Virus record (IMG/VR): IMGVR_UViG_3300020401_000014
Coordinates: 62,881 to 126,880 of that record
DNA: 64,000 bases
Direction: 5' to 3' (one strand)
Source of the DNA: a virus
A program made the position numbers and the translations under genes. Below are positions 2,503-63,000 of the stretch, one piece after another (the first letter of the stretch is position 1; the number at the start of each line of letters is the position of its first letter). The notes below the pieces were generated by a model. That model did no database searches. It was not told where the DNA came from and saw only the letters and a program-made list of their open reading frames with translations.

Positions 2503-2727
2503 ATGGAAGGCTATAATGGCTGGGCTAATTGGCAGACTTGGAATGTCGCCCTATGGCTAGGCAACGACGAAAGTTTATACAAACTTGCTAGGCGTTTTGT
2601 ACACTACAAAGATCTAGCCAACTATCTAATAGAATCGGGCACTACTAGCACACCCGACGGTGCGGACTACCAAGACCCTGAGCTTGACACCCACGCACTT
2701 GACGAGTTGCTAATGGACGAATTCTAA
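2503..2727 (+). CDS. Conserved-looking phage hypothetical protein (YNGWxNxxTWNVALW motif)
   Basis: MEGYNGWANWQTWNVALWLGNDESLY resembles a motif recurrent in small phage proteins. Confidence 0.7.
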   Translation: MEGYNGWANWQTWNVALWLGNDESLYKLARRFVHYKDLANYLIESGTTSTPDGADYQDPELDTHALDELLMDEF

Positions 2728-2801
2728 ATCCTTGACAGTCAAGAATTTAGGGCTCCGCCGGCCCCGGGTTTTGCCGGAAATGCTTGTGCTTCAAGCGTTT
2801 A
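2725..2801 (+). repeat. 77-bp 25-27-25 double-palindrome element, copy 1
   Basis: TAAATCCTTG-ACAGT-CAAGAATTTA, a 27-bp GC-rich spacer, then GAAATGCTTG-TGCTT-CAAGCGTTTA. Confidence 0.85.
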
Positions 2802-2820
2802 GGCAGGTTATCAGCGCGAC

Positions 2821-2906
2821 TTATAAGCTCATTAGTTGAGCTACAAACGTACCTAATGGGTCATTTTCTTGTCGCTTTTTTGGGTTTTATATGCTACTGT
2901 ATAAGT
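2821..2906 (+). promoter_or_regulatory. Operator-plus-promoter repeat, copy 2
   Basis: AGCTCA-TTAGT-TGAGCT at 2826-2842; -10 TACTGT ends 6 nt before ATG 2907. Confidence 0.65.
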
Positions 2907-3098
2907 ATGATTAAAATAATAGAAGTACTAATGAAAAGAGATCAACTTTCCGAAGAGGAAGCAACCGACCAAGTCGCCGCATTTCAATCTGAGATGTGGC
3001 TCGATGTCGCACAGGGTGGCGATGTCTGTGAATGGGAACACGCTTTCACTTCCGAGTTTGGGCTTGAGCCGGATTTCTTCGAGCTTTTAATCCTGTGA
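2907..3098 (+). CDS. Acidic hypothetical early protein
   Basis: Likely start MIKIIEV at 2907, set by promoter geometry. Confidence 0.65.
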   Translation: MIKIIEVLMKRDQLSEEEATDQVAAFQSEMWLDVAQGGDVCEWEHAFTSEFGLEPDFFELLIL

Positions 3099-3164
3099 TA
3101 ATAAAATGCCGAATGTGAATAACTTTTGCTCGACTTTTACCAAAAAATTTAATAGAATACGAAT

Positions 3165-3407
3165 ATGTTAGAAAAATTAGAAAAACTCCAAAAAGATCTT
3201 GCTTGGTGGCAAGACAAACTCAACCGATCACGCAAGGAATCGACTCGCTCGATTCGTGCCGTTCATGTGCAACACTTGCAAGATGAGATTGCAAAGCTCA
3301 CGCAACAAATCCGAGAGCGTGACTTGGAAATGCTCGATCTCAAAATCGCTCGTATAGATGCCCAAATCAAAAATCGCTCTTGGCAAAGAAGAGAGCAAAA
3401 CGCTTAA
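3165..3407 (+). CDS. Hypothetical coiled-coil protein
   Basis: 80 aa; promoter TCGACT 3130 -17- TAGAAT 3153. Confidence 0.7.
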   Translation: MLEKLEKLQKDLAWWQDKLNRSRKESTRSIRAVHVQHLQDEIAKLTQQIRERDLEMLDLKIARIDAQIKNRSWQRREQNA

Positions 3408-3411
3408 GCTT

Positions 3412-3753
3412 ATGAGAAAAGTAACACAACAAATAAAAGAAGCATTCGAACAACGCAAAGCCAAGACTGTTGGCAATACTCACACCGACGGAGAAAGCGT
3501 GTGGCTACATGGTAACAAGATAGTGACCCGCGACCCTAGTGGCGTTGTAATGGCTACGCTTGCAGGTTGGAACACTCCAACCACAAGAGAAAGAGTCAAC
3601 GGAATAACAGGATTAGGCTTTCACCAAGTAAACTTCGAAGCTTGCCTGAACGGTCAGATAGTTGACCCATTCGCTTGGTTTGTCAAGACGCACGAACCCA
3701 AGACTACCAAGCAAGTCTTGCCTCCACTTCCTAAGTCGTTGAGCGTCAAGTAA
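3412..3753 (+). CDS. Conserved-looking phage hypothetical protein
   Basis: MRKVTQ...VWLHGNKIV...LAGWNTPTTRERVNG; start re-called to ATG 3412. Confidence 0.7.
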   Translation: MRKVTQQIKEAFEQRKAKTVGNTHTDGESVWLHGNKIVTRDPSGVVMATLAGWNTPTTRERVNGITGLGFHQVNFEACLNGQIVDPFAWFVKTHEPKTTKQVLPPLPKSLSVK

Positions 3754-3808
3754 TTAGGGCTCTGCCGGTCCCGGGTTTTGCCGGAAATGCTTGTGCTTCA
3801 AGTGTTTA
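3732..3808 (+). repeat. 77-bp 25-27-25 element, copy 2
   Basis: TAAGTCGTTG-AGCGT-CAAGTAATTA, 27 bp, GAAATGCTTG-TGCTT-CAAGTGTTTA; spacer nearly identical to copy 1. Confidence 0.85.
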
Positions 3809-3828
3809 CGCAAAGCTATCAGTAAGAC

Positions 3829-3913
3829 TTATAAGCTCATTAGTTGAGCTACAAACGCAAATAATAGCGTTTTTTTTCTCGCTTTTTCGGGTTTTATCTG
3901 ATACATTGTATGT
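3829..3913 (+). promoter_or_regulatory. Operator-plus-promoter repeat, copy 3
   Basis: AGCTCA-TTAGT-TGAGCT at 3834-3850; -10 TACATT ends 6 nt before ATG 3914. Confidence 0.65.
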
Positions 3914-4114
3914 ATGATTAAAAATGATAAAGTAATACAAGTAAGAATCAAGAGATGGTCAACGCATTGGGCTGTCAAAATCTTCGACCAAGGAGTCGAT
4001 GCAGAAGGCAACGAACGCCCACGCGTTCGAACCGCTTCAAGTCAATCTCATCTCAATAGAATCATGCGAGATGAAGGTCTCAATCAGTTTCGTTTTAATG
4101 TTGTTTTTCAATAA
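3914..4114 (+). CDS. Hypothetical early protein
   Basis: 66-aa ORF behind a promoter. Confidence 0.65.
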   Translation: MIKNDKVIQVRIKRWSTHWAVKIFDQGVDAEGNERPRVRTASSQSHLNRIMRDEGLNQFRFNVVFQ

Positions 4115-4154
4115 TAAAGCTTGACTTTCACTCTTTAATCCTTAGAATATAATT

Positions 4155-4355
4155 ATGTTTGAATCACAAGACATTGATTACATCGCACAGAAAGCTTATG
4201 AAGCGGGCTTCGAAGGTAGCGATTCCGAAGAGCTTCCAAAGCGTTTGAGCGATCAACTCGAAACAGGCTTCGAGTATGTTTGGCTCGACAATTACCGCAA
4301 GGGGCAAGACGATGCTTTCCGCATCGTTTTGGCTGAATCTCCAACTTGGGAGTAA
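4155..4355 (+). CDS. Acidic hypothetical early protein
   Basis: TTGACT 4121 -16- TAGAAT 4143, ATG 4155. Confidence 0.7.
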   Translation: MFESQDIDYIAQKAYEAGFEGSDSEELPKRLSDQLETGFEYVWLDNYRKGQDDAFRIVLAESPTWE

Positions 4356-4358
4356 GAT

Positions 4359-4640
4359 ATGGCTTGGATGGACGAAATTGACTTTTCTCGTGAACCCAAC
4401 AGTAGGGAATGGGTAGGAATGTGTAGACGCAACCAAGCTCGTTGGGATGCACACAATACGGGCGAAAAGGTATACATTCTTGACATAGAGAACCGCTTAC
4501 TTGATCACAAGTTTCAGGTTCATCAACGTGCAAAAAACGCTTGGCAAGCTGCACTAAGATACTACAAAGGACTTGACCACCAAGTGCCTGCTTGGACTTG
4601 GAAGTGTACCAAAGTTGTAAAAGCTACCCTAAAGCCTTAA
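4359..4640 (+). CDS. Hypothetical protein
   Basis: 93-aa ORF immediately downstream of the previous gene. Confidence 0.65.
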   Translation: MAWMDEIDFSREPNSREWVGMCRRNQARWDAHNTGEKVYILDIENRLLDHKFQVHQRAKNAWQAALRYYKGLDHQVPAWTWKCTKVVKATLKP

Positions 4641-4706
4641 TAATCAATGTTTTAGGGCAAATCGCCGCTGTCGTCGCCGCGCAAATGCTTGATAAACAAA
4701 TACTTA
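4630..4706 (+). repeat. 77-bp 25-27-25 element, copy 3
   Basis: TAAAGCCTTA-ATAAT-CAATGTTTTA, 27 bp, CAAATGCTTG-ATAAA-CAAATACTTA. Confidence 0.85.
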
Positions 4707-4766
4707 CAAGATAAAAAAAATGAAAAAAAAGCTTGCAATTGCTTGCAATACATGCTACCTTTAGGT

Positions 4767-4955
4767 ATGACTAAATCAGAAATCGAAAGCCACATCTCTC
4801 ACCTTCACGCTCACCTTCAGACCGCTGATCTCAGCGAGCCTGATCGGGTTTCGCTCCGCAACGAGATCGGGCATTGGCAGGACAAGCTCGCCCTTCTCGA
4901 ATTCCAAAGCGAGGGCGAGGACTTCGACTTTGGTCACCACTCCGAATGGGAGTGA
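4767..4955 (+). CDS. Hypothetical protein, paralog A (C-terminus FQSEGEDFDFGHHSEWE)
   Basis: Start MTKSE at 4767; shares the C-terminal 17 aa with 5269..5457. Confidence 0.75.
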   Translation: MTKSEIESHISHLHAHLQTADLSEPDRVSLRNEIGHWQDKLALLEFQSEGEDFDFGHHSEWE

Positions 4956-4957
4956 CC

Positions 4958-5034
4958 TAAGTCGTTAATAGTAAATGTTTTAGGGCAAATCGCCACTGTC
5001 GCTGCCGCGTAAATGCTTGATAAACAAAGACTTG
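4958..5034 (+). repeat. 77-bp 25-27-25 element, copy 4
   Basis: TAAGTCGTTA-ATAGT-AAATGTTTTA, 27 bp, TAAATGCTTG-ATAAA-CAAAGACTTG; spacer nearly identical to copy 3. Confidence 0.85.
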
Positions 5035-5268
5035 CAGGATAAAAAAAATGAAAAAAAATGAAAAAAAAGCTTGACTTTTCGGCTTTTCTGTGGTAGAGTA
5101 TACTCATAATAAGATAAAAAATATAACCAACACCAAAAATGACAAATCTAACTGAGCGAGAAAAAATCCTTATCATCACAAAAATAATTCAAAAAAAAGC
5201 TTGACTTTTGCCAATTCATCTGATAAATTCTAAATATAAAATAAAGAAAACCCAACACAAAAAAAATT

Positions 5269-5457
5269 ATGACTAAAACCGAAATGCTCAACAAAATCTC
5301 TCTCCTCCGCGAAGTCCTTGCGGACTCCGTTTTGTCCTCCGCTGATCTCGTTGCGATCCGCAACGAAATCGGTGACCTTCAGGACAAGGTCGCTCTCCTC
5401 GACTTCCAAAGCGAAGGCGAGGACTTCGACTTCGGTCATCACTCCGAATGGGAGTGA
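5269..5457 (+). CDS. Hypothetical protein, paralog B (C-terminus FQSEGEDFDFGHHSEWE)
   Basis: 62 aa, same length as paralog A. Confidence 0.75.
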   Translation: MTKTEMLNKISLLREVLADSVLSSADLVAIRNEIGDLQDKVALLDFQSEGEDFDFGHHSEWE

Positions 5458-5503
5458 AAAAAAACCTTGACTTTCACTCTTAAATCACTAGAATAGTAAT
5501 CAT

Positions 5504-5764
5504 ATGTTAAATACTTCAAATAGAAATATCCCAACTCGCAGAGTCGAGTTTCTCAATGTCACTCTTCGCATCGTGCAGTCTTCAGTCGAAGACCCAACCG
5601 AAACGAGAGTTTTCAATACCAAGGTTTCGGCTGATCTTGACCAAGACCTTGACCACTTTTGGGCTTTGTCCGAAGCTCGTCGCCTAGAAGGCAACGCATG
5701 GAACACCGAAGAGGTTTCCGTTGAGCATTCATTCATTGACTCAACCGATCAATTCGTTTACTAA
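5504..5764 (+). CDS. Hypothetical early protein
   Basis: TTGACT 5467 -16- TAGAAT 5489 upstream. Confidence 0.65.
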   Translation: MLNTSNRNIPTRRVEFLNVTLRIVQSSVEDPTETRVFNTKVSADLDQDLDHFWALSEARRLEGNAWNTEEVSVEHSFIDSTDQFVY

Positions 5765-5952
5765 TGAGAATAATTGACATCGAACGAAACGAAAACCTGT
5801 CCGAGTGGCTCAATGTCCGAATCTTTGGCAAGGTTGTAGAAACTGAAAAGTCGCTTGCTTTGGCAATGCAAAAAGCAAAAGAATTGCAAGCACGAGAAAA
5901 AGAAAACACTCGCACCCCTTTCATTATAATAGTAAAAGACAATGCAAAATAA
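5764..5952 (+). CDS. Hypothetical protein
   Basis: Translationally coupled (TAATG overlap). Confidence 0.6.
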   Translation: MRIIDIERNENLSEWLNVRIFGKVVETEKSLALAMQKAKELQAREKENTRTPFIIIVKDNAK

Positions 5953-6130
5953 AATAATCAAAGAAAAAATATCGAACCTCACCTCCACGCTTCAAGCTCT
6001 CACATTGCAAAAAATGAACGCTTTGAGAGTTGGCAACCGCAAGGAAGCTGAAGCAATTCAATCCGTACAAGTTGACATTGATAATAAGATTGTGCAACTT
6101 GAGAGAGCAATAAGACTCATTAGATCATGA
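5942..6130 (+). CDS. Hypothetical coiled-coil protein
   Basis: 62-aa ORF overlapping its neighbours. Confidence 0.6.
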   Translation: MQNKIIKEKISNLTSTLQALTLQKMNALRVGNRKEAEAIQSVQVDIDNKIVQLERAIRLIRS

Positions 6131-6193
6131 CTTGGGACATTGTACTATTCTTGCCTTGGGTTGTAGTATTCTACTGCATGCACAAGAGCATTA

Positions 6194-6270
6194 TAAGCTC
6201 TTGATAATCAAGCTTTTAGGGCACGGCCGGCCTCCGGTTTTGACGTAAAACCTTGATAAACAACATCTTA
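6194..6270 (+). repeat. 77-bp 25-27-25 element, copy 5
   Basis: TAAGCTCTTG-ATAAT-CAAGCTTTTA, 27 bp, TAAAACCTTG-ATAAA-CAACATCTTA. Confidence 0.85.
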
Positions 6271-6344
6271 GGGTGATAGAATTGTGCAAAAAAGTAGTTG
6301 AAAGTTTTTCTTGACTTTTAGGCTTTGATATGTTACCTTAAGGT

Positions 6345-6527
6345 ATGATTAAATTAAATGATGTAGTTCGTGTCAAATATGGCACTCACAAGGGTAAAAC
6401 CTTTCAAGTCGTGGGCTTCGCTCGCAAAGATAGCCTTGGCAAGTTAATCACTTGCAGGTTATACCGCTCTCAATATCGGTTTAACTTCATGCCTTGGCAA
6501 ATTGAGATTCATCCTTTTTTTGCTTGA
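6345..6527 (+). CDS. Small basic KOW/SH3-like hypothetical protein
   Basis: IKLNDVVRVKYGTHKGKTFQVVG resembles a KOW motif; promoter TTGACT 6311 -17- TACCTT 6334. Confidence 0.55.
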   Translation: MIKLNDVVRVKYGTHKGKTFQVVGFARKDSLGKLITCRLYRSQYRFNFMPWQIEIHPFFA

Positions 6528-6557
6528 CTTTCACTCTCCAAACCTTAGAATATAGTT

Positions 6558-6797
6558 ATGTTAGATCAAAATAGAAAATCTCAATTCCCTGAGCTAGATC
6601 TCTCGCTCGAAATGTCAAAGCTAGAAGGCAAGCTTCGTTTTCTTGCTACTTGCTCCGAAAAAGTCAGCGAATGGACTCCGAGCTTTACACAAGCCGAAAC
6701 GATTCTCGAATCGCTTGGACATATCCAAGCCATAAGAAAAGACTTTGAAGAGTTGCAAGAGTTGCAACGCAAAAAATTGCTTGACTCCATCTCTTAA
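6558..6797 (+). CDS. Hypothetical early protein
   Basis: TTGACT 6524 -16- TAGAAT 6546, ATG 6558. Confidence 0.65.
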   Translation: MLDQNRKSQFPELDLSLEMSKLEGKLRFLATCSEKVSEWTPSFTQAETILESLGHIQAIRKDFEELQELQRKKLLDSIS

Positions 6798-6814
6798 CCT
6801 GTCATAATAGAATC

Positions 6815-6949
6815 ATGAACGAAAGACAAAAAGAACTCACCCAAATCATTAACGAACACACTGAGCTTGCCGAACAAGGTTGCATTGAGTCGATGCAAAT
6901 TGTGATCAATGCCCAAATAGAGCTTGACCAAATCACCGCAAACCAATAA
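6815..6949 (+). CDS. 44-aa hypothetical protein
   Basis: MNERQKELTQIINEH...; TTGACT 6781 -16- CATAAT 6803. Confidence 0.55.
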   Translation: MNERQKELTQIINEHTELAEQGCIESMQIVINAQIELDQITANQ

Positions 6950-7025
6950 TGGAATTAGTCATTCTTGTAATCGTTTCGGGTTTGATCGGTGGCATTAAAG
7001 AATTGATCTATCCAACTCTAGAACG

Positions 7026-7145
7026 CAAGTAACTGATAGTCAAGCTTTTACGGCAAAGCCGGCCCCAAAAAATTACGTAAATACTTGATAAACAAAGTTT
7101 TACATAAAATAACATGGCCGCAAATCCCTGAATATCAGGGACTTA
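7026..7145 (+). repeat. 77-bp 25-27-25 element, copy 6, plus a third palindrome 18 bp further on
   Basis: CAAGTAACTG-ATAGT-CAAGCTTTTA (7026-7050), 27 bp, TAAATACTTG-ATAAA-CAAAGTTTTA (7078-7102), then CAAATCCCTG-AATAT-CAGGGACTTA (7121-7145). Confidence 0.85.
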
Positions 7146-7165
7146 CGCATGATTAAAAAATATGT

Positions 7166-7228
7166 TATTTGGCTATTTGGCTATTCTATTTGGCTATTTG
7201 GCTGTTCTATTTGGCTATTTGCCTCTTC
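7166..7228. repeat. Three tandem 21-bp units, each (TATTTGGC)2 + TNTTC
   Basis: Units start at 7166, 7187 and 7208; non-coding, at the point where the + and - gene blocks converge. Confidence 0.9.
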
Positions 7229-7239
7229 TAAATATATAA

Positions 7240-7449
7240 TTATACATAGTCGGCATGGGCGTATAACTTTCCTTCTGTATAGTTAGCTTTTCTTGTTATG
7301 TCAACAAAGTTTCTCGCCTTGACATTTGCTTCTACGCAAGCTTTGCCCAATACTTTCTCATCACTCTCTAATACTCTTCTTGCACAGACTTCTGCGATGA
7401 TAGGAACTTTGTCGTTGGATAATGTTAAGATAAATTTTGTTTTGTTCAT
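7240..7449 (-). CDS. Hypothetical protein
   Basis: 69-aa ORF, last of the minus-strand block. Confidence 0.6.
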   Translation of the reverse strand: MNKTKFILTLSNDKVPIIAEVCARRVLESDEKVLGKACVEANVKARNFVDITRKANYTEGKLYAHADYV

Positions 7450-7472
7450 GGCTTAATTATATCAGATTGAGA

Positions 7473-8207
7473 TTAAGAGTCAATACCTTCTTGCACAAAA
7501 CCTGTCGCATCCTTCTTTGCCATACCTTTTTCGATAAGCCCGACAACAACGCCACGCTTGTCAAGGAAACGCAAATCCGTGTCATCACCATTGACAACTT
7601 CGTAGCCTTTCCAAGTTTTGGGCAACTGATTGCGAAATACCACGGCAACATTACCGCCCATCGCAAGAACCATTTCACACTTGGCATCATTGTTTTCGCT
7701 ACGAGAGAAGGTCAAGTGATAATTGGAAGGAAACTTTTCGCCTTTGATAAAAGGCTTGCCAAGAAAGTTGCTCATTCTTTTGAACGACTTTGTATAATCA
7801 TAGAATTGAGTTTTGCCAAACTTCTCAAAGATAGTAACACCATCCTCATTAATCTCATTCTCCCAACTGATGTCGCTCGTAAGGTTTAAACGAAATACCG
7901 CTTGCATTTCCTTTTTGAGAGAGCTTTTGATGGTCGAAGTAATCTCTTTGGACAACTTAGTAAAGAAGTCCATTTTTTGCTCAAAGAATAGCTTTGTCTT
8001 GGCAATGCGTGATTGCTGAACGCTATTCATTTGCCCACGACCAGCCGTGTTGAGACATGACATTGTGCAACCTTTAGAACGCCAACGGCAAACTTCATAG
8101 CCTGCAAGATTGGCGGGGGCAAGATGAATGCCTTTCGTGATGTAACCCATTTTCTCGCCCTTGAGAATTTTTTGGTTACCTGATGTGAGAAGAGTTGTTT
8201 TAATCAT
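7473..8207 (-). CDS. Phage GP88-like protein (Cys-cluster, radical-SAM-like)
   Basis: LAPA...VCRWRSKGCTMSCLNTAGRG, RLNLTSD, FYDYTK, YHLTFSRSE, DGDDTDLRFLD; leaderless promoter TTGACA-17-TAGTAT. Confidence 0.75.
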   Translation of the reverse strand: MIKTTLLTSGNQKILKGEKMGYITKGIHLAPANLAGYEVCRWRSKGCTMSCLNTAGRGQMNSVQQSRIAKTKLFFEQKMDFFTKLSKEITSTIKSSLKKEMQAVFRLNLTSDISWENEINEDGVTIFEKFGKTQFYDYTKSFKRMSNFLGKPFIKGEKFPSNYHLTFSRSENNDAKCEMVLAMGGNVAVVFRNQLPKTWKGYEVVNGDDTDLRFLDKRGVVVGLIEKGMAKKDATGFVQEGIDS

Positions 8208-8230
8208 GATACTATACTAATGGAAATAAA

Positions 8231-8647
8231 TTAATCTGTCAAGCCCCGAATAGCCTCAACCAAAACTTTGTCTTGATAAAGTTTGCAAATACTAGCAAAC
8301 CATCTTGGCTTCTTGTTTTTGACATCAACAAAAGACTCGTACTTGTAAGGATTGTATGTTATCTCAACGAAGTCAACCCATCCATGCCATACGGTGTCTT
8401 CATAAAATCTAAGGTAACCTGAAATACCGGCATGAACATTCTTGCTCTTTTCACGAAGCACACGCTCACGACCTTTTTGGTTTACTTTCATTGTTGCTGA
8501 ATATATAGCAATTGGAGATCCATCCGAATGAGCTTTAACTAGTCCATCCTGGCGAATGCTCCAACAATCTTTGTGAAGGTTTTTATATACAAACACCTTG
8601 CGATCATAGTCGATGTTATAGCGAGAGTCGTTTTTTGTTCTAATCAT
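8231..8647 (-). CDS. Conserved-looking phage hypothetical protein
   Basis: VYKNLHKDCWSIRQ...RERVLREKSKNVHAG...ITYNPYKY is a recurrent phage motif. Confidence 0.7.
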   Translation of the reverse strand: MIRTKNDSRYNIDYDRKVFVYKNLHKDCWSIRQDGLVKAHSDGSPIAIYSATMKVNQKGRERVLREKSKNVHAGISGYLRFYEDTVWHGWVDFVEITYNPYKYESFVDVKNKKPRWFASICKLYQDKVLVEAIRGLTD

Positions 8648-8699
8648 ACATATATAATAACATATAGAGCCCGTATGTCAAGCCTTTTTTATCTTTTCG

Positions 8700-8776
8700 C
8701 AAGTGTATGATTGTCAAGGTTTTGCGTAAAAACTTTGGGCCGGCAGTTACCTAAAATGTTGCAAACCAACAACTTA
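8700..8776 (-). repeat. 77-bp 25-27-25 element, copy 7 (inverted)
   Basis: CAAGTGTATG-ATTGT-CAAGGTTTTG, 27 bp containing GGGCCGGC (reverse complement of the GCCGGCCC core), TAAAATGTTG-CAAAC-CAACAACTTA. Confidence 0.8.
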
Positions 8777-8798
8777 TAACTTAAGAAATTTAACTAAT

Positions 8799-8828
8799 AA
8801 AAAAACCCTTGGTTTCCCAAGGGTTTTT
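8799..8828. terminator. Intrinsic terminator
   Basis: AAAAACCCTTGG-TTTC-CCAAGGGTTTTT perfect hairpin with A/T tails, downstream of the minus-strand ORF 8853..9080. Confidence 0.8.
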
Positions 8829-8852
8829 GAGGTTAGGCTAAGCCTATCCGAG

Positions 8853-9080
8853 TTAAGCGCCCGCACGCTTGAAAAAGCGTGAGGCAACTTTTGCACGGAT
8901 AACCTTTGCACGATTAACACGACGCTCGCCTCCATTGGTATCCTTAAAGCGGATAACCTTGGAGTTGTAGTCATGAACTTTAGCTGAGTAAAGCTCACGC
9001 TTGAGACCATTCTTGAGGAGAACGGATACAAACCGACCTTTGCGTGCGTCTAGGACTTCGTTGATGTTACGACATTTCAT
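8853..9080 (-). CDS. Basic hypothetical protein
   Basis: 75 aa, followed by a terminator. Confidence 0.65.
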   Translation of the reverse strand: MKCRNINEVLDARKGRFVSVLLKNGLKRELYSAKVHDYNSKVIRFKDTNGGERRVNRAKVIRAKVASRFFKRAGA

Positions 9081-9111
9081 GATATGTAGTTCCTTTGGTT
9101 GATGGTTAAAG

Positions 9112-9909
9112 TTAAGCTACAAGCTCGACCTGCTCGACTCCTGCGATAGGATCGAAAGCATTGTGAAAGATTTCAGAGCGTTTGGGCAAGTGCATGACAT
9201 TGCGTCCTTTGCTCACTTCCGTGAAAGCATTGTACAATGAATTGAGATTGCGGTCTTGGAAAACCTTGTGATCGGAATCTTTCCATTGCTCCCATGCTTG
9301 AGCAAGAGTAGACTGACCAATAAGATTAGTCTTGATACCCGCCTCGTAGACATCGAAAATAAGATGTTGAGCTTCACGATCGTTGAGTGCAACCTCCTTG
9401 TAAGAGTCAACTCTCTTGTTTTGATGCGTCCACATTGGAATAAGATGCTCGGTGATCTTTTCTACACGCTGAAGAAGTTCTTTGCGGACTTCGCCAACAT
9501 GCTTGCGAGTGAATACAACATCGTTGTGGAATACGAGGTTGTCACAAATGAATGGTGCATCACCCGCACACAATCCCGCTGCGAAAAGTTTGTCATGCGA
9601 ATTACGCATTCCAACTACGCAACCACGCTCCTTGCCGTTGTCGGCAATCTCTGCGTGATGAACTTGAAACATTCCAAAGTAGTGTTCACCCGCTTTGGTC
9701 AAGTTGTGGCATTCGTTTACGATCTCGAAACCTTTTTCTTCAAGAGTGTTGCGAGTAACATCGACAACGCTTGCATGAGGCACAGGCTTCCAACGATTAG
9801 TTTCCTTTGGAGTAGGAACTCTGCGGACAGAATCCATGTCCACGACATTTGATTTTGAGCCACAAATCCGAAGATTGAGGCGTGGAATTTCATAGGTTGT
9901 TTCTAACAT
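9112..9909 (-). CDS. DUF932-family protein
   Basis: TNRWKPVPH, VGMRNSHDK, GLCAG...FICDNL, RKHVG motifs. Confidence 0.75.
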   Translation of the reverse strand: MLETTYEIPRLNLRICGSKSNVVDMDSVRRVPTPKETNRWKPVPHASVVDVTRNTLEEKGFEIVNECHNLTKAGEHYFGMFQVHHAEIADNGKERGCVVGMRNSHDKLFAAGLCAGDAPFICDNLVFHNDVVFTRKHVGEVRKELLQRVEKITEHLIPMWTHQNKRVDSYKEVALNDREAQHLIFDVYEAGIKTNLIGQSTLAQAWEQWKDSDHKVFQDRNLNSLYNAFTEVSKGRNVMHLPKRSEIFHNAFDPIAGVEQVELVA

Positions 9910-9979
9910 AATTTTTTAAGTTTAGGATTTTTGATTGTTATGATATAAGTATAAGTTAATATATAGCAAAAGTCAAGCA

Positions 9980-10249
9980 TTAATTTTGCGAATTCTTGTT
10001 TTGTGTGATGCCATACTGAAGGTCTTCCCAAGCTTGGGCTTTCTTGGCAATAATGTTAAGAGCAAACTTGATATGCATAAGAGTCTCTTGTTGTTCTTCG
10101 TCAAGCTCTCCGCTTGCAAGTGCGGGAACAATAAACCAATCACCCAATACATCGGTGACTGCATCCATTGCCTTTGTTGCACTGATATCTGATGCTGAAA
10201 AGATATCTTCGTTTTCGTCGTTGTTAGTGAAGTCTTTCTCAATCCTCAT
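9980..10249 (-). CDS. Acidic hypothetical protein
   Basis: Start re-called to MRIEKDF at 10249, from promoter TTGCAA-16-CATAAT. Confidence 0.6.
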   Translation of the reverse strand: MRIEKDFTNNDENEDIFSASDISATKAMDAVTDVLGDWFIVPALASGELDEEQQETLMHIKFALNIIAKKAQAWEDLQYGITQNKNSQN

Positions 10250-10321
10250 ACATATAATTATGACAGGTTCTGAGCTAATTGCAAGCATAAAATGACTAGT
10301 AAATGCATTTTTTTCAGTACT

Positions 10322-10398
10322 TAAGTGCTTGATAACCAAGGTTTTGCGCCAAAACCGGAAGGCCCAAATCCCCCAAAAGCTTGGGGGATAAGGACTTA
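10322..10398 (-). repeat. 77-bp 25-27-25 element, copy 8 (inverted)
   Basis: TAAGTGCTTG-ATAAC-CAAGGTTTTG, 27 bp, CAAAAGCTTG-GGGGA-TAAGGACTTA. Confidence 0.8.
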
Positions 10399-10569
10399 GG
10401 GAAGGGTTTTTAGAAAACCCTTTTTTCTAATTTGTAGAGCTTTTCTAACATGGAATCATGCAATTTTCTTTTCTCTACAAAATCTTCGCAATAAGCACCC
10501 GAAGACTCAGCAAGCATTAGCTCAAAGCCAAGCTCCCGAATGCTTTTTTTCAACGCTTCGATGTTCATG

Positions 10570-10800
10570 TTATACCTTTGCGAGAGCTTTCACACGATCA
10601 TACCTAAAAGAGCGAATGCCCTTTCTGTTGTGGCAGAACGCACGAAACCCGACAACATTACGACCTTCGTGATTGTTCCCAAACTCGTAGTCATGCTGAG
10701 GTTTGTTGATGGTATAACTTTCCGTTCTTCCATCTTCAGTAGTATATACCACTTGATACTTAGGAGAGAACAGGTTCTTGATTTTGCTTAGTAGCTTCAT
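10570..10800 (-). CDS. Small WYL-like/Sm-fold protein
   Basis: FRAFCHNRKGIRSFRYDRV resembles the WYL R-x-F-R-x-D-R motif. Confidence 0.5.
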   Translation of the reverse strand: MKLLSKIKNLFSPKYQVVYTTEDGRTESYTINKPQHDYEFGNNHEGRNVVGFRAFCHNRKGIRSFRYDRVKALAKV

Positions 10801-11032
10801 AAGCGATCCTTTCGTTTTGGATTTGTTCTAGTTGATTGAGAACTGCTTGACATTGATCATGCGTCTCGTAATGTAAAGTAATTAGATCGGGGTATTCGTT
10901 TTCACCCCTTCTGTACCAATCGGGCAAACGCTCCTCGAAGTACATTTCCCAAAGCCCTGACTCTTCATTAAAAGTGGGTTTGTCGAGAGGTGGTAACTCG
11001 CAGTTTTCTTGAATGTATTCTAAATTTAACAT
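10760..11032 (-). CDS. Hypothetical protein
   Basis: TTGACT-17-GAGAAT, 6 nt before the ATG. Confidence 0.65.
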   Translation of the reverse strand: MLNLEYIQENCELPPLDKPTFNEESGLWEMYFEERLPDWYRRGENEYPDLITLHYETHDQCQAVLNQLEQIQNERIAYEATKQNQEPVLS

Positions 11033-11233
11033 GATATAATTCTCTCAAAAATAGACTAAGAAGTCAAGCCTTTTTTTGCTTCTTGAGCTTTTTTTACCTT
11101 TTGCGTGACCATCACATTTGGATTGTTGATGTGTGGGACAAGTGGCTTTGCTCCTGTGTGAGACTGTTGCTTTGCCTTTTTATATAAATCCAAGTGTTGT
11201 TCTTGACTTGGCACTCCTCTTTCTCTGTTTCTT

Positions 11234-11437
11234 TTACCCATTTTTGGCTTCCTCTATGATTTGTTCTAGTTGTGCAAGCACGGACTTTTTGTTGCCTTTA
11301 AGTCCAAACTCGCTTTTGACGATTGAATATGCTGATTGACCTCTTCGCTTCATTCCAAGACACTCTAGCTTGAGTGCGGATCTGAGGCTAAGAATTCTAT
11401 ATAGTTCTATATGTTCGGATGTGTCTAATGCTATCAT
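11234..11437 (-). CDS. Conserved-looking hypothetical protein
   Basis: LRSALKLECLGMKRRGQSAYSIVKSEFGLKG is a recurrent phage motif. Confidence 0.6.
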   Translation of the reverse strand: MIALDTSEHIELYRILSLRSALKLECLGMKRRGQSAYSIVKSEFGLKGNKKSVLAQLEQIIEEAKNG

Positions 11438-11443
11438 AATGTT

Positions 11444-11668
11444 TTAGATGTTTGCTGATTGAAAAGATGCTTCTATTCTACGCTCATCTCGCAAACTTGT
11501 CAAGTCTGAAATGATGTCATCTAAGACTTCATCGAATGACTGAAAAGTACTGCCGAGCGGAAACTTGTCGGGGTGGCGTTCGTGTTGGTCAAGGCAAACC
11601 TTGGACATTGGATCTGCCCAAGCAAGATTTCCCTTAACGATTTGGATTACTAATTCTGCTTCTGTCAT
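11444..11668 (-). CDS. Hypothetical protein
   Basis: TTGACA-17-TAGTAT, 6 nt before the ATG. Confidence 0.65.
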   Translation of the reverse strand: MTEAELVIQIVKGNLAWADPMSKVCLDQHERHPDKFPLGSTFQSFDEVLDDIISDLTSLRDERRIEASFQSANI

Positions 11669-11979
11669 GGTATAATACTAAGCTAGTTTGAAATATATGT
11701 CAACCACTAAATCCAAGAAAATGAACGATTGCGATATATATAAAGATGATTAATGCTGCTAGTGCGAATGTTTGTTGGTATGTCATGGTAAATTGGTAGG
11801 ATTTTTTTGACAAATCAGGAATCCCATAAACCTGTTAATTAGCTAGTTTGGATTTTCTACTTACTAATTTCAGCTACTCATCCGCTATACTAAAGTGTGA
11901 ACCTCTTTCTCTCTCCCGAAGGTTGTAGGCGTGTGCTGACGCCTCGTTGTTCAATGCTTTCGCATCTACAGAAAGAGCA

Positions 11980-12111
11980 GTCCCCTGCAGGATTCGAACC
12001 TGCGTTTCCTACATCCTCATCGGATTACTCCTTACCAATGATCAGTTGGCTACAGACTAACTAGTATCCTGTTGTGGAGTGGCGTCCTAGGCCGTACTAG
12101 ACGAAGGGGAC
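11980..12111 (-). ncRNA. tRNA-like RNA (132 nt) with an expanded, non-canonical anticodon arm
   Basis: Acceptor GTCCCCT/AGGGGAC, D arm GTCT...GGAC, T arm GCAGG-TTCGAAT-CCTGC; 75 nt lie between the D arm and the variable loop instead of 17. Own promoter TTGACA(12175)-16-CATAAT. Confidence 0.7.
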
Positions 12112-12252
12112 ACAAATTGAAATTGATTATCAAAAGAACTATATATCATTATGACAGAAAAACGCTCCGTGTCAACACTTTTTTTTCGTTACCTAAATCG
12201 TTGGCGCAGAAGAAAATAGGAAAAATATATAAAACCTTTAAAAAAACTTTCG

Positions 12253-12329
12253 TAAGTCGTTGGCGCAGAAGAAAATACAACAAATCTCAGTGGGCGATTT
12301 TCCATAAGTTGTTGATAATCAACTACCTT
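12253..12329 (-). repeat. 77-bp 25-27-25 element, copy 9 (inverted, partly degenerate), with an extra half copy at 12194-12218
   Basis: TAAGTCGTTG-GCGCA-GAAGAAAATA, 27 bp containing GGCGATTT (reverse complement of AAATCGCC in copies 3 and 4), TAAGTTGTTG-ATAAT-CAACTACCTT. Confidence 0.7.
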
Positions 12330-12503
12330 GGTCGCCGCCTCAAGTTAAAATAAATTCATAAGTATAATATTTGTCACTTTATTATTTACAATTATATAAT
12401 TCACAATATTTATATTTGTCTTATTTACCATTCCTGTATTGCTAATTTAATTCCTGCTATTGCTCCTATTGCTAGTATTAATAATATCTCCATATAATAT
12501 ATG

Positions 12504-13874: not shown

Positions 13875-13967
13875 AAGACCAAAGGCTTTTATTGAGTTAC
13901 CTTTGAAGCGATGATAGTAACTAGAGGCAACACACAACCTCCGCATATTTGCTCAGAAAAAATAGAT

Positions 13968-14150
13968 GTGGGGGAGGACTACTGAATACCTCCAACTTTT
14001 CGGCGTGAACATCAGTTCAGGATTACCTACTTCGAACCACAGATTAGACTTGGCATTCGTCATCGACTCATCCGATTGGACTCTATCGCCCCGCCACAGG
14101 GAATCTGCGTACTTTAGCCCGCTCACGACAGGTTTAGTTCAGTCACCCAC
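13968..14150 (-). ncRNA. Structured rod-like ncRNA candidate (183 nt), 6S-like in size and shape
   Basis: Nested long-range pairings on the minus strand: GTGGG/CCCAC, ACTGAA/TTCAGT, ACCT/AGGT, CGTGAGC/GTTCACG, GCAGATT/AATCTGT. GC-rich island in an intergenic gap, between a perfect promoter and a terminator. Confidence 0.55.
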
Positions 14151-14246
14151 AGGAAGGATTATAAGCCCTTCCAAAGTGTTTAAAATGTTAAAGATCAATT
14201 TATTTTATTTATTTGAGTTTGGTTCTCAATTTTGATTATGTAATAA

Positions 14247-49769: not shown

Positions 49770-50126
49770 TGGTGGAGGTGGCGGGATTTGAACCCGCGTC
49801 TTGTTGATTATTCGGAATTAAGTCTACAGTAATAGCTTATTTTTTTTAATGTTTTGATATAAGCATCTAACATCTTGTTACAATTATTTTCAGTTTATGA
49901 ACAAGCAAACCTTTTCTGTTTTTACAGATTGATGACCCCTGCTAACTTATCTGTGTCCACCAGCGAGAGGTGCAGCTTTATGCTGCAAGAGCGAGCTCTT
50001 CGCGAGCGAAGGGCTCAACAGAATTAATGTTTGTAGCATTTATTCTTTTATGCCTTTTAACGAAGCCAGGCATCTCTTCGTACTGCATTAAAACTTTCAA
50101 ATAACAATCGAATCCAAAACACCCCC
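49770..50126 (-). ncRNA. ssrA: tmRNA (357 nt)
   Basis: 5' GGGGGTG...GGATTCGA; 3' GACGCGGGTTCAAATCCCGCCACCTCCACCA; tag ORF 50037-49978 encodes ATNINSVEPFAREELALAA*. Confidence 0.95.
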
Positions 50127-60003: not shown

Positions 60004-63000
60004 ATGGCCGATTTAACAATCAAACAGCTTGTAAAAAAAATAGCCGCATTTAAGGCTTTTATAGATCCGGATGGAGATGGTAATTTTGATAAATCATTTT
60101 CTCTTCTTAGGGCCTATACTAAAGCTGCTGAAACAGACGCCGCGTTTAATGCGATTGCTAATCTTAGTTTATTTAGAATATCTACTCAATATAATGAGGC
60201 GGGCTTTGGAGATAGTAATGATAGCGGCAGGGATGTGGATCTTGGTGGTACAGAAGGTTCTGTGAATTTAAGCCCTTTTGGAAGTGTTCAACCGCTCAAC
60301 CCTGATGACGACGAATCAACTCAAAATGCTCTTGGTTGGTACTGGCATAATGTGTTTGGGTGGTTTTGGTTTAGCTATCCGTGGATATATTCTACCAAAT
60401 ATAAAAGGTGGTTTTGGATAGGTCAATTAAAAAAGAAAAATGAGAAGCTGACGGGATGGGTTTGGAATCCTGATCTTGGGTGGCTTTGCGCGATAAGCGG
60501 AGGTATTTATAATCCAGGTCCACCTCCAACTGAAATTAACAAGGGTACTGGAAGTCTTGAGCCTGACGATGGTAATCTGGACGGCGAGCTAAACAACGAA
60601 AAAAATGGAGACCTTGGAGGTATTAATGAAAGTAGCGGAGACGATGGATCTGGAACCCCTGCGAGTAACGATTTAGATAAAAGATATTATGTTTCGCCTT
60701 GGGGTTGGTGTAGATGGGACGGCATTAGCGATGAAATTTATTTGGAAGATTACAAAGAGTGGATGTTGTTTCCTGAAGATGTTTCGTTTCCTCCTGACCC
60801 GACAGACTTTCCTATAAATGTAAAAATTGGACCTTTTGATACTGATGGAGGCGGAGGAAGTACAATAGTTTGTACGATAAACCCACCGAAACTAGAAGAG
60901 GGAGACGGTTCAGAGTTCACGGTTACAGGATATCCTCATGTAACCGACCCAACCAGCCCAACAGATCCAGAAGTTGACAATAAAACCAAGCCAACTGGAG
61001 TAGATCCAATATTGGCTACGGGCTGGGCTTACAATAAAACGTTTGGAACTTATTATGTGCCGCAAAATATAACTGCAGATAGCCTAGAATACAATGGAGA
61101 AAGTCACGTATGGGGAGATTCGGTGTTAGGAGATGCAGATGCAATTGAAGCTGTATATCAAACAGTTTTGGGGAGAGCTTCTGACTCTGGCGGGCTTGCT
61201 TATTATCTAACTTTGGATGTCACGCTCTATGATTTGGTGGGAATTTTTGTTGATAGTGACGAATACAAGGCAATGTCAAATCCGCCTGATGACCCTAGAA
61301 TAAAAATTAATTGGATTTATTCTGGATTTTGGGAAACATGGATATATATTGGCGAGCTGACGGGCCCTGACGCTTTAATTGGGTGGGTCTGGTTTGATTC
61401 AACCGAAACATGGTACTGGATTACTGATGGATTTATATTTATTCCTGGGTCATCAGAAATGAATTTTCTCACTGGCACAGGAGGTAGTACTCAAAATTTT
61501 GACGATTTTAATGGAGTGTCAACTAAAACTGGATCTAATTTTGAATTTCCAAAATTCACGAGCGGCGGAGGAACTGGAGTTGGAGGAGGAAACTTTGGGC
61601 CGTGTATTATATTTGCAGACAACAATCCCGCGACTAACGGATGGTTTTGGAGTTTTAGATTTGGGTGGATATATGGCAATCCAACTACTGGCTGGTATTA
61701 TATTTATAAGTGGAAGGATTGGTTTTGGTTTGGCGTCTGTGCTGACGGTTCTGGCTGGACATATTCTTTTTGGCACAGAATTTGGTTTTGGTGCTTTTTT
61801 GGAAAGCTTTCTACTGCAAGTGGGCAGTCACCTGAAGATTTAGGTGGAGGAGGAGTTACTATCGATGGATTTCCAGGAACAAAAACTGGAGGACCTTTTT
61901 CGGGGCCAAGCAACGCAGGTAACGGAGACGGAGAAAATTCAACTAGTAGCGGTCCAAACCCAATCACTAAAATTCCATCAAAGCCAGAGGCTGCTATAGA
62001 GTTAGGACTTAATATAATTGCTGATACTGTAACCGAGGTACTAACTACTACTACCGTGTCTCATCCAGATGGAGATTACGAAATTGCTGACCAAGTTAAT
62101 GTAACTGGTGGAGAATTTATTGGGCTCGACCCAGCAAACGGAACGGCAATAGAAAGCTGGGATTTTGATAGAATACTAAGCGTTGCAGATGTTAAGTTAA
62201 TTTATGATACAATATTTGGAGCAGCTAATCATACTTTTGTAGATGAGAATTCTGCTGACGGAGGTTACTGGGTTGGAAAAGAATCCAGCTTACTTTTTGA
62301 AAGCGACAATTTAAATGATGCATTTGATGGATCGCACGATCAAAGATATACAGATTCAATAAAAGACCTGTTGGTTGCTGAGCCAAATGAAAATGAAACA
62401 AAAGGATTTTCTAATGTAAAAAGTTTCTTTAAAGAAATAGACGAATCAACGCAAACATTTACTACTCCAGAAGATGCAATTTTGAGCCCTGCTACTCAAA
62501 ACGGATTCAGTGCATCTTGGAGAAAAGTAAAACCCGCATCAGCATACGCGGTTCAAATTTCTGATTCTCCAGCTTATTTAAGCCACGGAGGACAAAATTA
62601 TGAATGGTCAGATATGGTAAATCATGATTCTGCAAAGGTAGAGGCGATGTACCAAGTAATTCTCAATAGAGGTTCTGACCCTGGAGGTTTAGCTCACTAT
62701 ACATCATCAGAGTATGAATATACAACCTTATTTGATCTCGCCGACATTTTCCTTGGTAGCGCAGAATATCAAGGCATGTCTAGTCCTCCTGGTGATCCTC
62801 GTCCTGACGCAACTGAGTGGGCCACATTTTCGAGAACAGAATTTATAACAAGAAAAGAATTTAAATCATTTAGTAATTTAACTGCAGGCGAAACTTATTA
62901 TGTTAGAATTAAAGGTATTAATCAAAGCCTTAATACTGATTGGACTAAAACATTAATGGCTAAATTGCCTGATGGTCAAGCCCAGAGCCATCCGTTCTTG

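Follow-up and report, generated by a model that had tools for sequence, protein, structure and literature searches.

What are the short repeats that punctuate the early region of a large, uncultured marine phage, and what do they do between its genes? The question is raised by a 64,000-nucleotide stretch of the IMG/VR virus record IMGVR_UViG_3300020401_000014 (positions 62,881 to 126,880; hereafter the window), part of a genome of ~200 kb, in which a 77-bp element composed of two 25-bp palindromic arms around a GC-rich spacer, or core, occurs repeatedly. An earlier note, made from the letters of the window alone, had listed nine copies and ascribed them to a dedicated protein-DNA architecture. 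We find that this double-arm unit is a real, conserved and previously undescribed variant of boundary repeats of the promoter-early stem-loop (PeSL) type, which are composite elements of T4-type phages (Arbiol et al. 2010, PMC2839356; Comeau et al. 2014, PMC4122927). As to what the unit does, we give about even chances to the reading that it is the boundary module of a PeSL-like composite repeat, with arms that are predicted DNA sites for a host protein of the IHF/HU class.

Nine copies of the element in the window

All nine copies were present and in register with the 25-27-25 geometry claimed for them, the distance between the arms being exactly 27 bp each time. When the nine were made into an nhmmer profile, it recovered each of them full-length and ungapped (E 1e-13 to 1e-20) and detected no additional full copy anywhere in the window. 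The arms also exceed background: the pattern YAA-N4-TTG-N5-CAA-N4-TTR, with at most one mismatch, matched 21 times in the window versus 2.4 +/- 1.6 times in shuffled sequence, and none of 100 shuffles reached 21. Fifteen of these 21 matches are arms of the nine copies. The orientation of the element tracks gene direction, with six copies on the plus strand before 7.1 kb and three on the minus strand after it.

Copy 1: 2725..2801, plus strand; arm 2725-2749, spacer 2750-2776, arm 2777-2801
Copy 2: 3732..3808, plus strand; near-duplicate of copy 1, including the downstream flank
Copy 3: 4630..4706, plus strand; stop codon of open reading frame (ORF) 4359-4640 within arm 1
Copy 4: 4958..5034, plus strand; near-duplicate of copy 3, with a degenerate arm 1
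Copy 5: 6194..6270, plus strand; the highest-scoring copy
Copy 6: 7026..7102, with a third arm at 7121-7145 (7026..7145), plus strand; at the convergence of two transcription blocks
Copy 7: 8700..8776, minus strand
Copy 8: 10322..10398, minus strand; abuts a bidirectional terminator-like hairpin at 10398-10426
Copy 9: 12253..12329, with a duplicated third arm at 12192-12216 (12192..12329), minus strand

Since copies 1 and 2, and likewise copies 3 and 4, are recent duplicates sharing their flanks, fewer than nine copies are independent. Copy 9 is weak, with at least two mismatches in both arms.

Most copies had been said to touch a stop codon and to precede a promoter-driven cassette. The first part holds for copies 1-6, where a stop lies in or beside arm 1; the first three bases of copy 1 are the TAA stop of ORF 2503-2727, and arm 1 of copy 2 contains the stop of ORF 3358-3753. 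The second part holds for copies 3, 4, 5, 7, 8 and 9 and fails for copy 6, which has no promoter downstream and is followed by a TATTTGGC iteron-like array. An A-rich UP region and a TTGCAA promoter lie ~27 nt downstream of copy 3, and a TTGACT promoter begins ~37 nt downstream of copy 4. In the case of copy 5, a TTGACT -35 box begins 40 nt past arm 2, preceded by a ATTGTGCAAAAAA...TAGTTGAAAG motif that is common to relatives. Upstream of copy 7 in the transcript stands a canonical intrinsic terminator (8828-8801, minus strand), and the TTGACA promoter of gene 8231-8647 comes 18 nt past the copy. Copy 8 has a TTGCAA promoter ~37 nt downstream, and copy 9 with its third arm is located upstream of the TTGACA promoter of a tRNA-like gene. 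A terminator-like canonical hairpin (3853-3872) comes after copy 2.

Other features adjoin the copies. Just past copies 1 and 2, at 2826-2842 and ~3834-3850, there is a distinct palindrome, AGCTCA-N5-TGAGCT, to which the apparent third TTG-N5-CAA after these copies belongs; the -35 boxes of the promoters downstream of it are poor. The TATTTGGC array (7166-7228) stands at the block convergence directly after the triple-arm element and keeps its position in relatives (~12300-12360 in locus L014, ~10700-10760 in L016); a replication origin and an array for protein binding are both possible roles. Very small hydrophobic ORFs (22-27 aa), e.g. MELVILVIVSGLIGGIKELIYPTLERK, end in or near arm 1 at 6950-7033 (+), 6128-6205 (+) and ~12430-12500 (-), and may encode membrane micro-peptides of a common family.

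The element in related phages

The window, part of a large phage genome, carries rIIA/rIIB and an ATP-dependent ligase, and an Rfam search of it found two tRNAs, a tmRNA and a manA RNA, none of them inside the 77-bp elements, which themselves match no curated Rfam family in the window scan. The manA RNA (73 bits) and the tmRNA (133 bits, with a tag ending ALAA) are at 13963-14172 (-) and 49770-50126 (-), respectively. Megablast of 11 kb of the window gave no INPHARED phage match, and the best protein matches are distant, to large phages of Alphaproteobacteria at 35-39% identity.

Relatives were retrieved through the conserved neighbour gene 7473-8207 of the GP88 family, which shares 54-94% amino-acid identity with them over the best matching segment; this yielded 49 IMG/VR loci. 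Their strands were assigned by promoter voting with a regular expression, ORF-length voting being too noisy with small genes. An exact-word scan of IMG/VR with the arm-2 18-mer of the window returned only unrelated contigs (L050-L079), none matching the element profile. The element was found in ~40 related IMG/VR phage contigs with ~150 occurrences. Profile scans and arm-matrix scans gave 141 profile matches (106 distinct sequences) and later 148 distinct transcription-oriented elements, and many of the loci are closely related, so that these counts are not independent events. The consensus over relatives is TAAGTCGTTGA-N3-TCAACGACTTA, a GC-rich spacer and TAA(C/G)TCGTTGA-N3/4-CAACGACTTA.

Arms were scanned genome-wide, and gene families searched, in four complete relatives of 194-211 kb. 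In every one of them the arms were concentrated in one 10-15 kb hyperplastic zone, which confirms that they are confined to the early region, and arm matches outside the zone were scattered singletons near the level of a reversed-pattern control. The consensus form of the element was absent from 185,579 bacterial and archaeal genomes.

The spacer of 27 bp, described before as invariant, is so in the genome of the window, and its length differs by lineage among the relatives, as listed below for the 148 elements.

Spacer of 27 bp: 86 elements, most loci
Spacer of 17 bp: 15 elements, L043 and L002
Spacer of 23-25 bp: 22 elements, L006, L031 and L041
Spacer of 30 bp: 11 elements, L010 and L008/L009
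Spacer of 26, 28, 29, 31, 33 or 35 bp: 14 elements, various loci

Within a genome, spacer length is identical in the window and in L043 and varies by 1-3 bp in L006, L010, L031 and L033. The centre-to-centre distance of the arms is 42, 48-50, 52-53 or 55 bp depending on the lineage, and these values are not multiples of the helical turn, so the idea that the arms are held on the same helical face is not supported. Considering that spacing is tight within genomes and different between lineages, the invariant 52 bp in the window reflects shared ancestry, homogenisation and loose constraint, and not a strict same-face requirement.

Promoter context and the position of the PeSL stem-loop

The element has a set place in the order of the region: a stop codon or terminator, the element, an A/T-rich UP region, a sigma-70 promoter and the next cassette. 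A TTGAC-N16-19-TAnnWT promoter is present downstream in 73/148 elements; beyond arm 2 the order is an A/T-rich stretch and then a TTGAC-N17-TAnnnT promoter, the -35 box of which most often starts 40 nt past arm 2. The distances from arm 2 to the -35 box have minor modes at 20, 30 and 40 nt. In the sister lineages L020 and L030, a GnCn palindrome and not the double-arm unit stands before the same upstream motif and promoter. This is how the PeSL stem-loops of RB49/phi1 have been described (PMC4122927). As a GnCn stem-loop lies at this same position in L020 and L030, as in PeSLs, the double-arm unit holds the slot of the PeSL stem-loop. The earlier note had known of no named element with such a layout; that statement is too strong, since the unit takes the stem-loop position of a PeSL-type composite (PMC4122927), and BIMEs of Escherichia coli combine palindromic units with IHF sites (PMC3184786). 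Our literature search found no prior description of the double-arm layout itself.

The promoter region has further regularities. Composites of a GGGGGGG/CCCCCC palindrome and a promoter occur in 6-8 copies at 12467-19535 of L020 and 11912-15331 of L030, in the classical PeSL form. An upstream motif, AGAATTGTGCAAAAA-N-TAGTTGAAAG-TTTTTC, precedes the TTGACTTT -35 box in many cassettes across lineages, with arms or without them, and may be a factor-binding site or UP element. The early promoters read TTGACT/A-N16-17-TAGAAT or TAGTAT, with an ATG ~6 nt past the -10 box and no Shine-Dalgarno sequence, which suggests that the mRNAs of the early cassettes are leaderless. Many cassettes in the window and in relatives begin with ATGATTAAR (M-I-K).

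Upstream promoter motif: window 6277-6300; L010 ~12060; L014 ~14000; many copies in L030 and L020
Early promoter: window 4121-4157
Early promoter: window 5467-5506
Early promoter: window 6311-6347
Early promoter: window 6524-6560
Early promoter: window 8242-8205, minus strand
Early promoters: others in the window

The arms are conserved as sequence motifs

To what level, DNA or RNA, does the conservation of the arms belong? Across the 148 elements it is confined to TAA, TTG(A), (T)CAA and TTA, while the N4 blocks and the centre vary freely, and the inner half-sites, those beside the spacer, are best conserved. In the lineage of L012/L039 one half-site per arm remains, with CAACGACTTA kept, indicating that palindromy itself is dispensable. 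At the variable arm positions, the Watson-Crick fraction equalled the shuffled-column expectation, whether a local hairpin, pairing of arm 1 with arm 2, or pairing of inner halves was considered, and G:U mismatches were no more frequent than A:C on the sense strand. RNAalifold predicted 0 pairs for 90 aligned elements. For a three-helix model, 69.7% of cells were paired compared with 69.5% after shuffling, and the covariation scores were 0.122 and 0.121, respectively. Without covariation, the palindromy comes from the conserved columns TAA, TTG(A), (T)CAA and TTA. The arms thus do not appear to be selected hairpins, and their conservation points to protein recognition at the DNA level; a protein-DNA motif, as the earlier note had favoured, explains the element better than an RNA fold.

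Models of a long hairpin between arms 1 and 2 and of paired inner halves were rejected, with pairing at the shuffled level. A correlation between columns 22 and 56 (CC or GG) was also rejected as a structural signal, for it reflects pseudo-symmetry and subfamilies. Single-sequence RNA folds of the nine copies in the window were inconsistent, with z about -0.2 to -0.6 in 5/9.

The GC-rich core is polar

The core, unlike a symmetric motif, has a direction. It starts with GG in the sense of transcription in 71 elements versus 8 in the opposite sense, has an A-run in its 5' half in 89 versus 5, and a T-run in its 3' half in 76 versus 8 with an A-run, and it is always oriented with transcription. 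The core can form a GC hairpin of 4-7 bp beside arm 1, the register of which varies and for which covariation is weak. A scan for consensus terminators flagged none of the nine window spacers as an intrinsic terminator; its sole overlap with a spacer is in copy 8, at 10356-10340 (-), where the tail extends into arm 2. Since separate canonical terminators precede copy 7, follow copy 2 and adjoin copy 8, the element and the terminator are not simply the same thing.

Cassette turnover around the element

Cassettes of the window are found in other orders and neighbourhoods in relatives. Megablast breakpoints are ~2-fold enriched within 25-100 bp of arms, and the ends of replacements are enriched alike near arms (~2-3-fold) and promoters (~1.4-3-fold). 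This enrichment is an association with intergenic boundaries generally and is not arm-specific. The earlier suggestion of a recombination cassette boundary is supported by one cassette indel with arm-arm junctions. In L017, two elements flank a promoter and a 63-aa ORF, whereas L040 carries no such cassette; there, a triple-arm element has formed by fusion, and its junction falls within the arms. No other independent arm-arm event was seen among 75 pure indels, where chance alone would give 0.08. Triple-arm forms, including that at 7026-7145 of the window, are best read as indel scars or slippage products.

A predicted site for an IHF/HU-class protein

The IHF core consensus is WATCAA-N4-TTR. 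The conserved arm positions and their 4-nt gap coincide with its CAA-N4-TTR part. CAA-N4-TTR is present in 100/148 and 110/148 of the inner half-sites. Where many half-sites had been said to match the IHF consensus, the window has 17 exact matches to WATCAANNNNTTR compared with 10 expected, and 9 of the 17 are in arms. No gene of the HU/IHF family was found in the four complete phage genomes, which makes a host factor the simplest candidate binder.

In the reading that we favour, the arms would be two-fold symmetric DNA recognition sites, TAA-N4-TTGA-N3-TCAA-N4-TTA, each made of two back-to-back IHF-type cores, and their binder would be a dimer of the IHF/HU class, supplied by the host and probably able to bend DNA. 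The core, with its small GC hairpin and T-run, would be the counterpart of the GnCn stem-loop of the sister lineages. Once bound and bent, the arm pair would act as a roadblock or topological barrier that insulates adjacent, strong early transcription units from one another, and would perhaps aid the downstream promoter. A module repeated in this manner would also provide short homologies where cassettes are gained, lost or swapped. The identity of the binder, the bending, the insulation and the promoter effect are what we infer from these motifs; an insulator or roadblock function and a function as recombination substrate are both plausible. The roles in packaging, DNA entry or as a replication scaffold that had also been suggested found no support.

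Several findings weigh against this reading. The exact IHF 13-mer is present in only 50/148 elements, conservation at W-A-T is weak, and the additional A conserved at arm position 21 lies outside the IHF consensus. Arm-to-promoter distance ranges over 10-93 nt and arm spacing over 42-55 bp, and as they are not phase-locked they argue against a rigid looped architecture. Some lineages are without arms, which are hence not essential to the promoter cassette. Breakpoint enrichment near arms (~2-fold) is no greater than near promoters (~3-fold), and the arm-arm indel stands as a single independent case. At variable positions, elements of one genome are modestly more alike than elements of different genomes, and concerted evolution could add to the apparent conservation.

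A more specialised form of the favoured reading is that the double-arm module is a dedicated nucleoprotein boundary in which a symmetric IHF-class dimer on each arm would clamp the polar core with its T-run, acting as a protein-assisted bidirectional roadblock terminator and topological insulator and giving recombinase-free mobile early-gene cassettes; this we regard as doubtful.

Alternative explanations

Could the element work in RNA instead, with arms and core folding on the early transcripts into two or three hairpins that end transcription, are processed by RNase III/E or stabilise the 3' end, much as at the RNase III sites that separate T7 early genes? Its orientation with transcription, the polar core with its T-run and the transcription of arm 1, which begins at a stop codon, would fit, as would several copies in relatives that fold better than shuffles (z between -2 and -4) and some C-G to A-U exchanges in a small GGGC-loop-GCCC hairpin. 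However, no consensus structure emerged, pairing and covariation stayed at shuffled values without a sense-strand bias of G:U over A:C, and the window copies fold inconsistently. One lineage has lost half-arms though CAACGACTTA is kept, copy 7 lies downstream of a strong canonical terminator, and the terminator scan flagged no spacer, the overlap in copy 8 having its tail in arm 2. An RNA-level element is therefore unlikely. We give a similarly low probability to a phage-encoded dimeric regulator that would, for example, shut off or activate early promoters from operators in the arms. The two-fold symmetry of 25-bp sites upstream of early promoters, their restriction to the early zone and the extra conserved base outside the IHF consensus are what such operators would be expected to show, and sister lineages without arms could lack the regulator. 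Yet TAA, TTG, CAA and TTA are kept in all lineages and only N4 drifts, where a switch of specificity would be expected; the promoter distance is variable, copy 6 and its orthologue sit at the convergence without a promoter, and Pfam and PHROG annotation of the genes neighbouring the elements gave no DNA-binding candidate.

Two further explanations make the repeat itself mobile or recombining. It might be a selfish, non-autonomous repeat of MITE, REPIN or BIME kind that sits in early intergenic spacers and has no phage function beyond tolerated side effects. Arms that form terminal inverted repeats ending TAA...TTA, lineage-specific presence, triple-arm forms and the modest excess of within-genome similarity are compatible with this, and known MITEs and BIMEs carry IHF sites (PMC3184786). 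But the four complete relatives have neither a Y1/RAYT transposase (PF01797) nor a tyrosine recombinase (PF00589), the repeat keeps to one zone at a fixed position relative to stop codon and promoter, and its consensus form is missing from the bacterial and archaeal genomes scanned. In addition, motif positions are differentially conserved across divergent lineages, and no clean pair of empty and filled sites with target duplication was found, so that a selfish origin appears improbable. Integron-like attC sites bounding mobile gene cassettes would account for imperfect inverted repeats directly at the stop codons of small cassettes and for shuffled cassette order among relatives. This is hardly credible, as the same four genomes are without the tyrosine recombinase, every cassette has its own promoter, structural covariation is lacking and there is a single arm-arm junction event.

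Comparison with known systems

Like PeSLs, the element is a repeated intergenic module that directly precedes an AT-rich region and an early promoter of sigma-70 type. As with PeSLs, too, it is concentrated where small ORFan cassettes make up a hyperplastic region and is associated with indels, replacements and the shuffling of cassettes, and sister lineages of this phage group bear the simple GnCn stem-loop form. Another trait of PeSLs is that tandem copies recombine to give mini-circles. It differs in having two, sometimes three, 25-bp symmetric AT-rich motifs around a GC core at genome-specific spacing, where a PeSL has one short stem-loop; in arms that show no hairpin covariation; and in downstream genes that are apparently leaderless, with no Shine-Dalgarno part. 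The phage group gave no match to the T4 Gp23 capsid family (PF07068), though this search, of two complete relatives, had no positive control, as the control genomes likewise gave none.

With the BIMEs of E. coli (BIME/RIP-RIB), in which REP palindromic units are combined with an IHF-binding linker (PMC3184786), the element shares the alternation of palindromic units with conserved, fixed-length linkers, a location at gene 3' ends, an IHF-type motif and an implication in recombination. The arrangement is the opposite one, however: in the phage element the palindromic units are AT-rich and IHF-like and the linker is GC-rich, and the element is phage-borne, confined to 10-15 kb and without a RAYT transposase. 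Membership in the REP/BIME-REPIN family was rejected, given AT-rich arms without stem covariation and the absence of PF01797 from the four genomes, and so was membership among integron attC sites, given the absence of PF00589 and cassettes that carry their own promoters. Correia and MITE elements, which carry IHF sites (PMC3184786), are similar in being short (~100 bp), intergenic and beside promoters and terminators, with terminal inverted repeats and an IHF motif. The phage element yielded neither a target-site duplication nor a transposase, its IHF-like motif is in the arms and not in the centre, and its genomic distribution is restricted.

Tandem IHF sites are found upstream of the phage early promoters lambda pL and Mu Pe. 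There as here, IHF-type motifs are tens of bp upstream of a strong sigma-70 early promoter with an A/T-rich upstream region, whereas the sites of the present element are symmetric, are repeated at many cassettes, and lie at non-fixed distances from promoters and also where there is no promoter.

Implications

For the rapid turnover of small early ORFan cassettes in large phages, PeSL-type elements are, to our knowledge, the only mechanism put forward, and they have been described only for T4-type phages. A related PeSL-type system is now found in an uncultured, abundant marine phage group, with the stem-loop replaced or flanked by symmetric motifs. The lineage change of spacing, from 17 to 30 bp, is a natural experiment on the importance of geometry, and the element offers a compact, testable synthetic cassette boundary. 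If the dedicated nucleoprotein boundary were true, it would be a phage counterpart of integron cassettes that works through host architectural proteins and short-homology exchange. Binding of the arms by a host IHF-class protein would tie host nucleoid proteins to the insulation and modular exchange of the phage's host-takeover genes.

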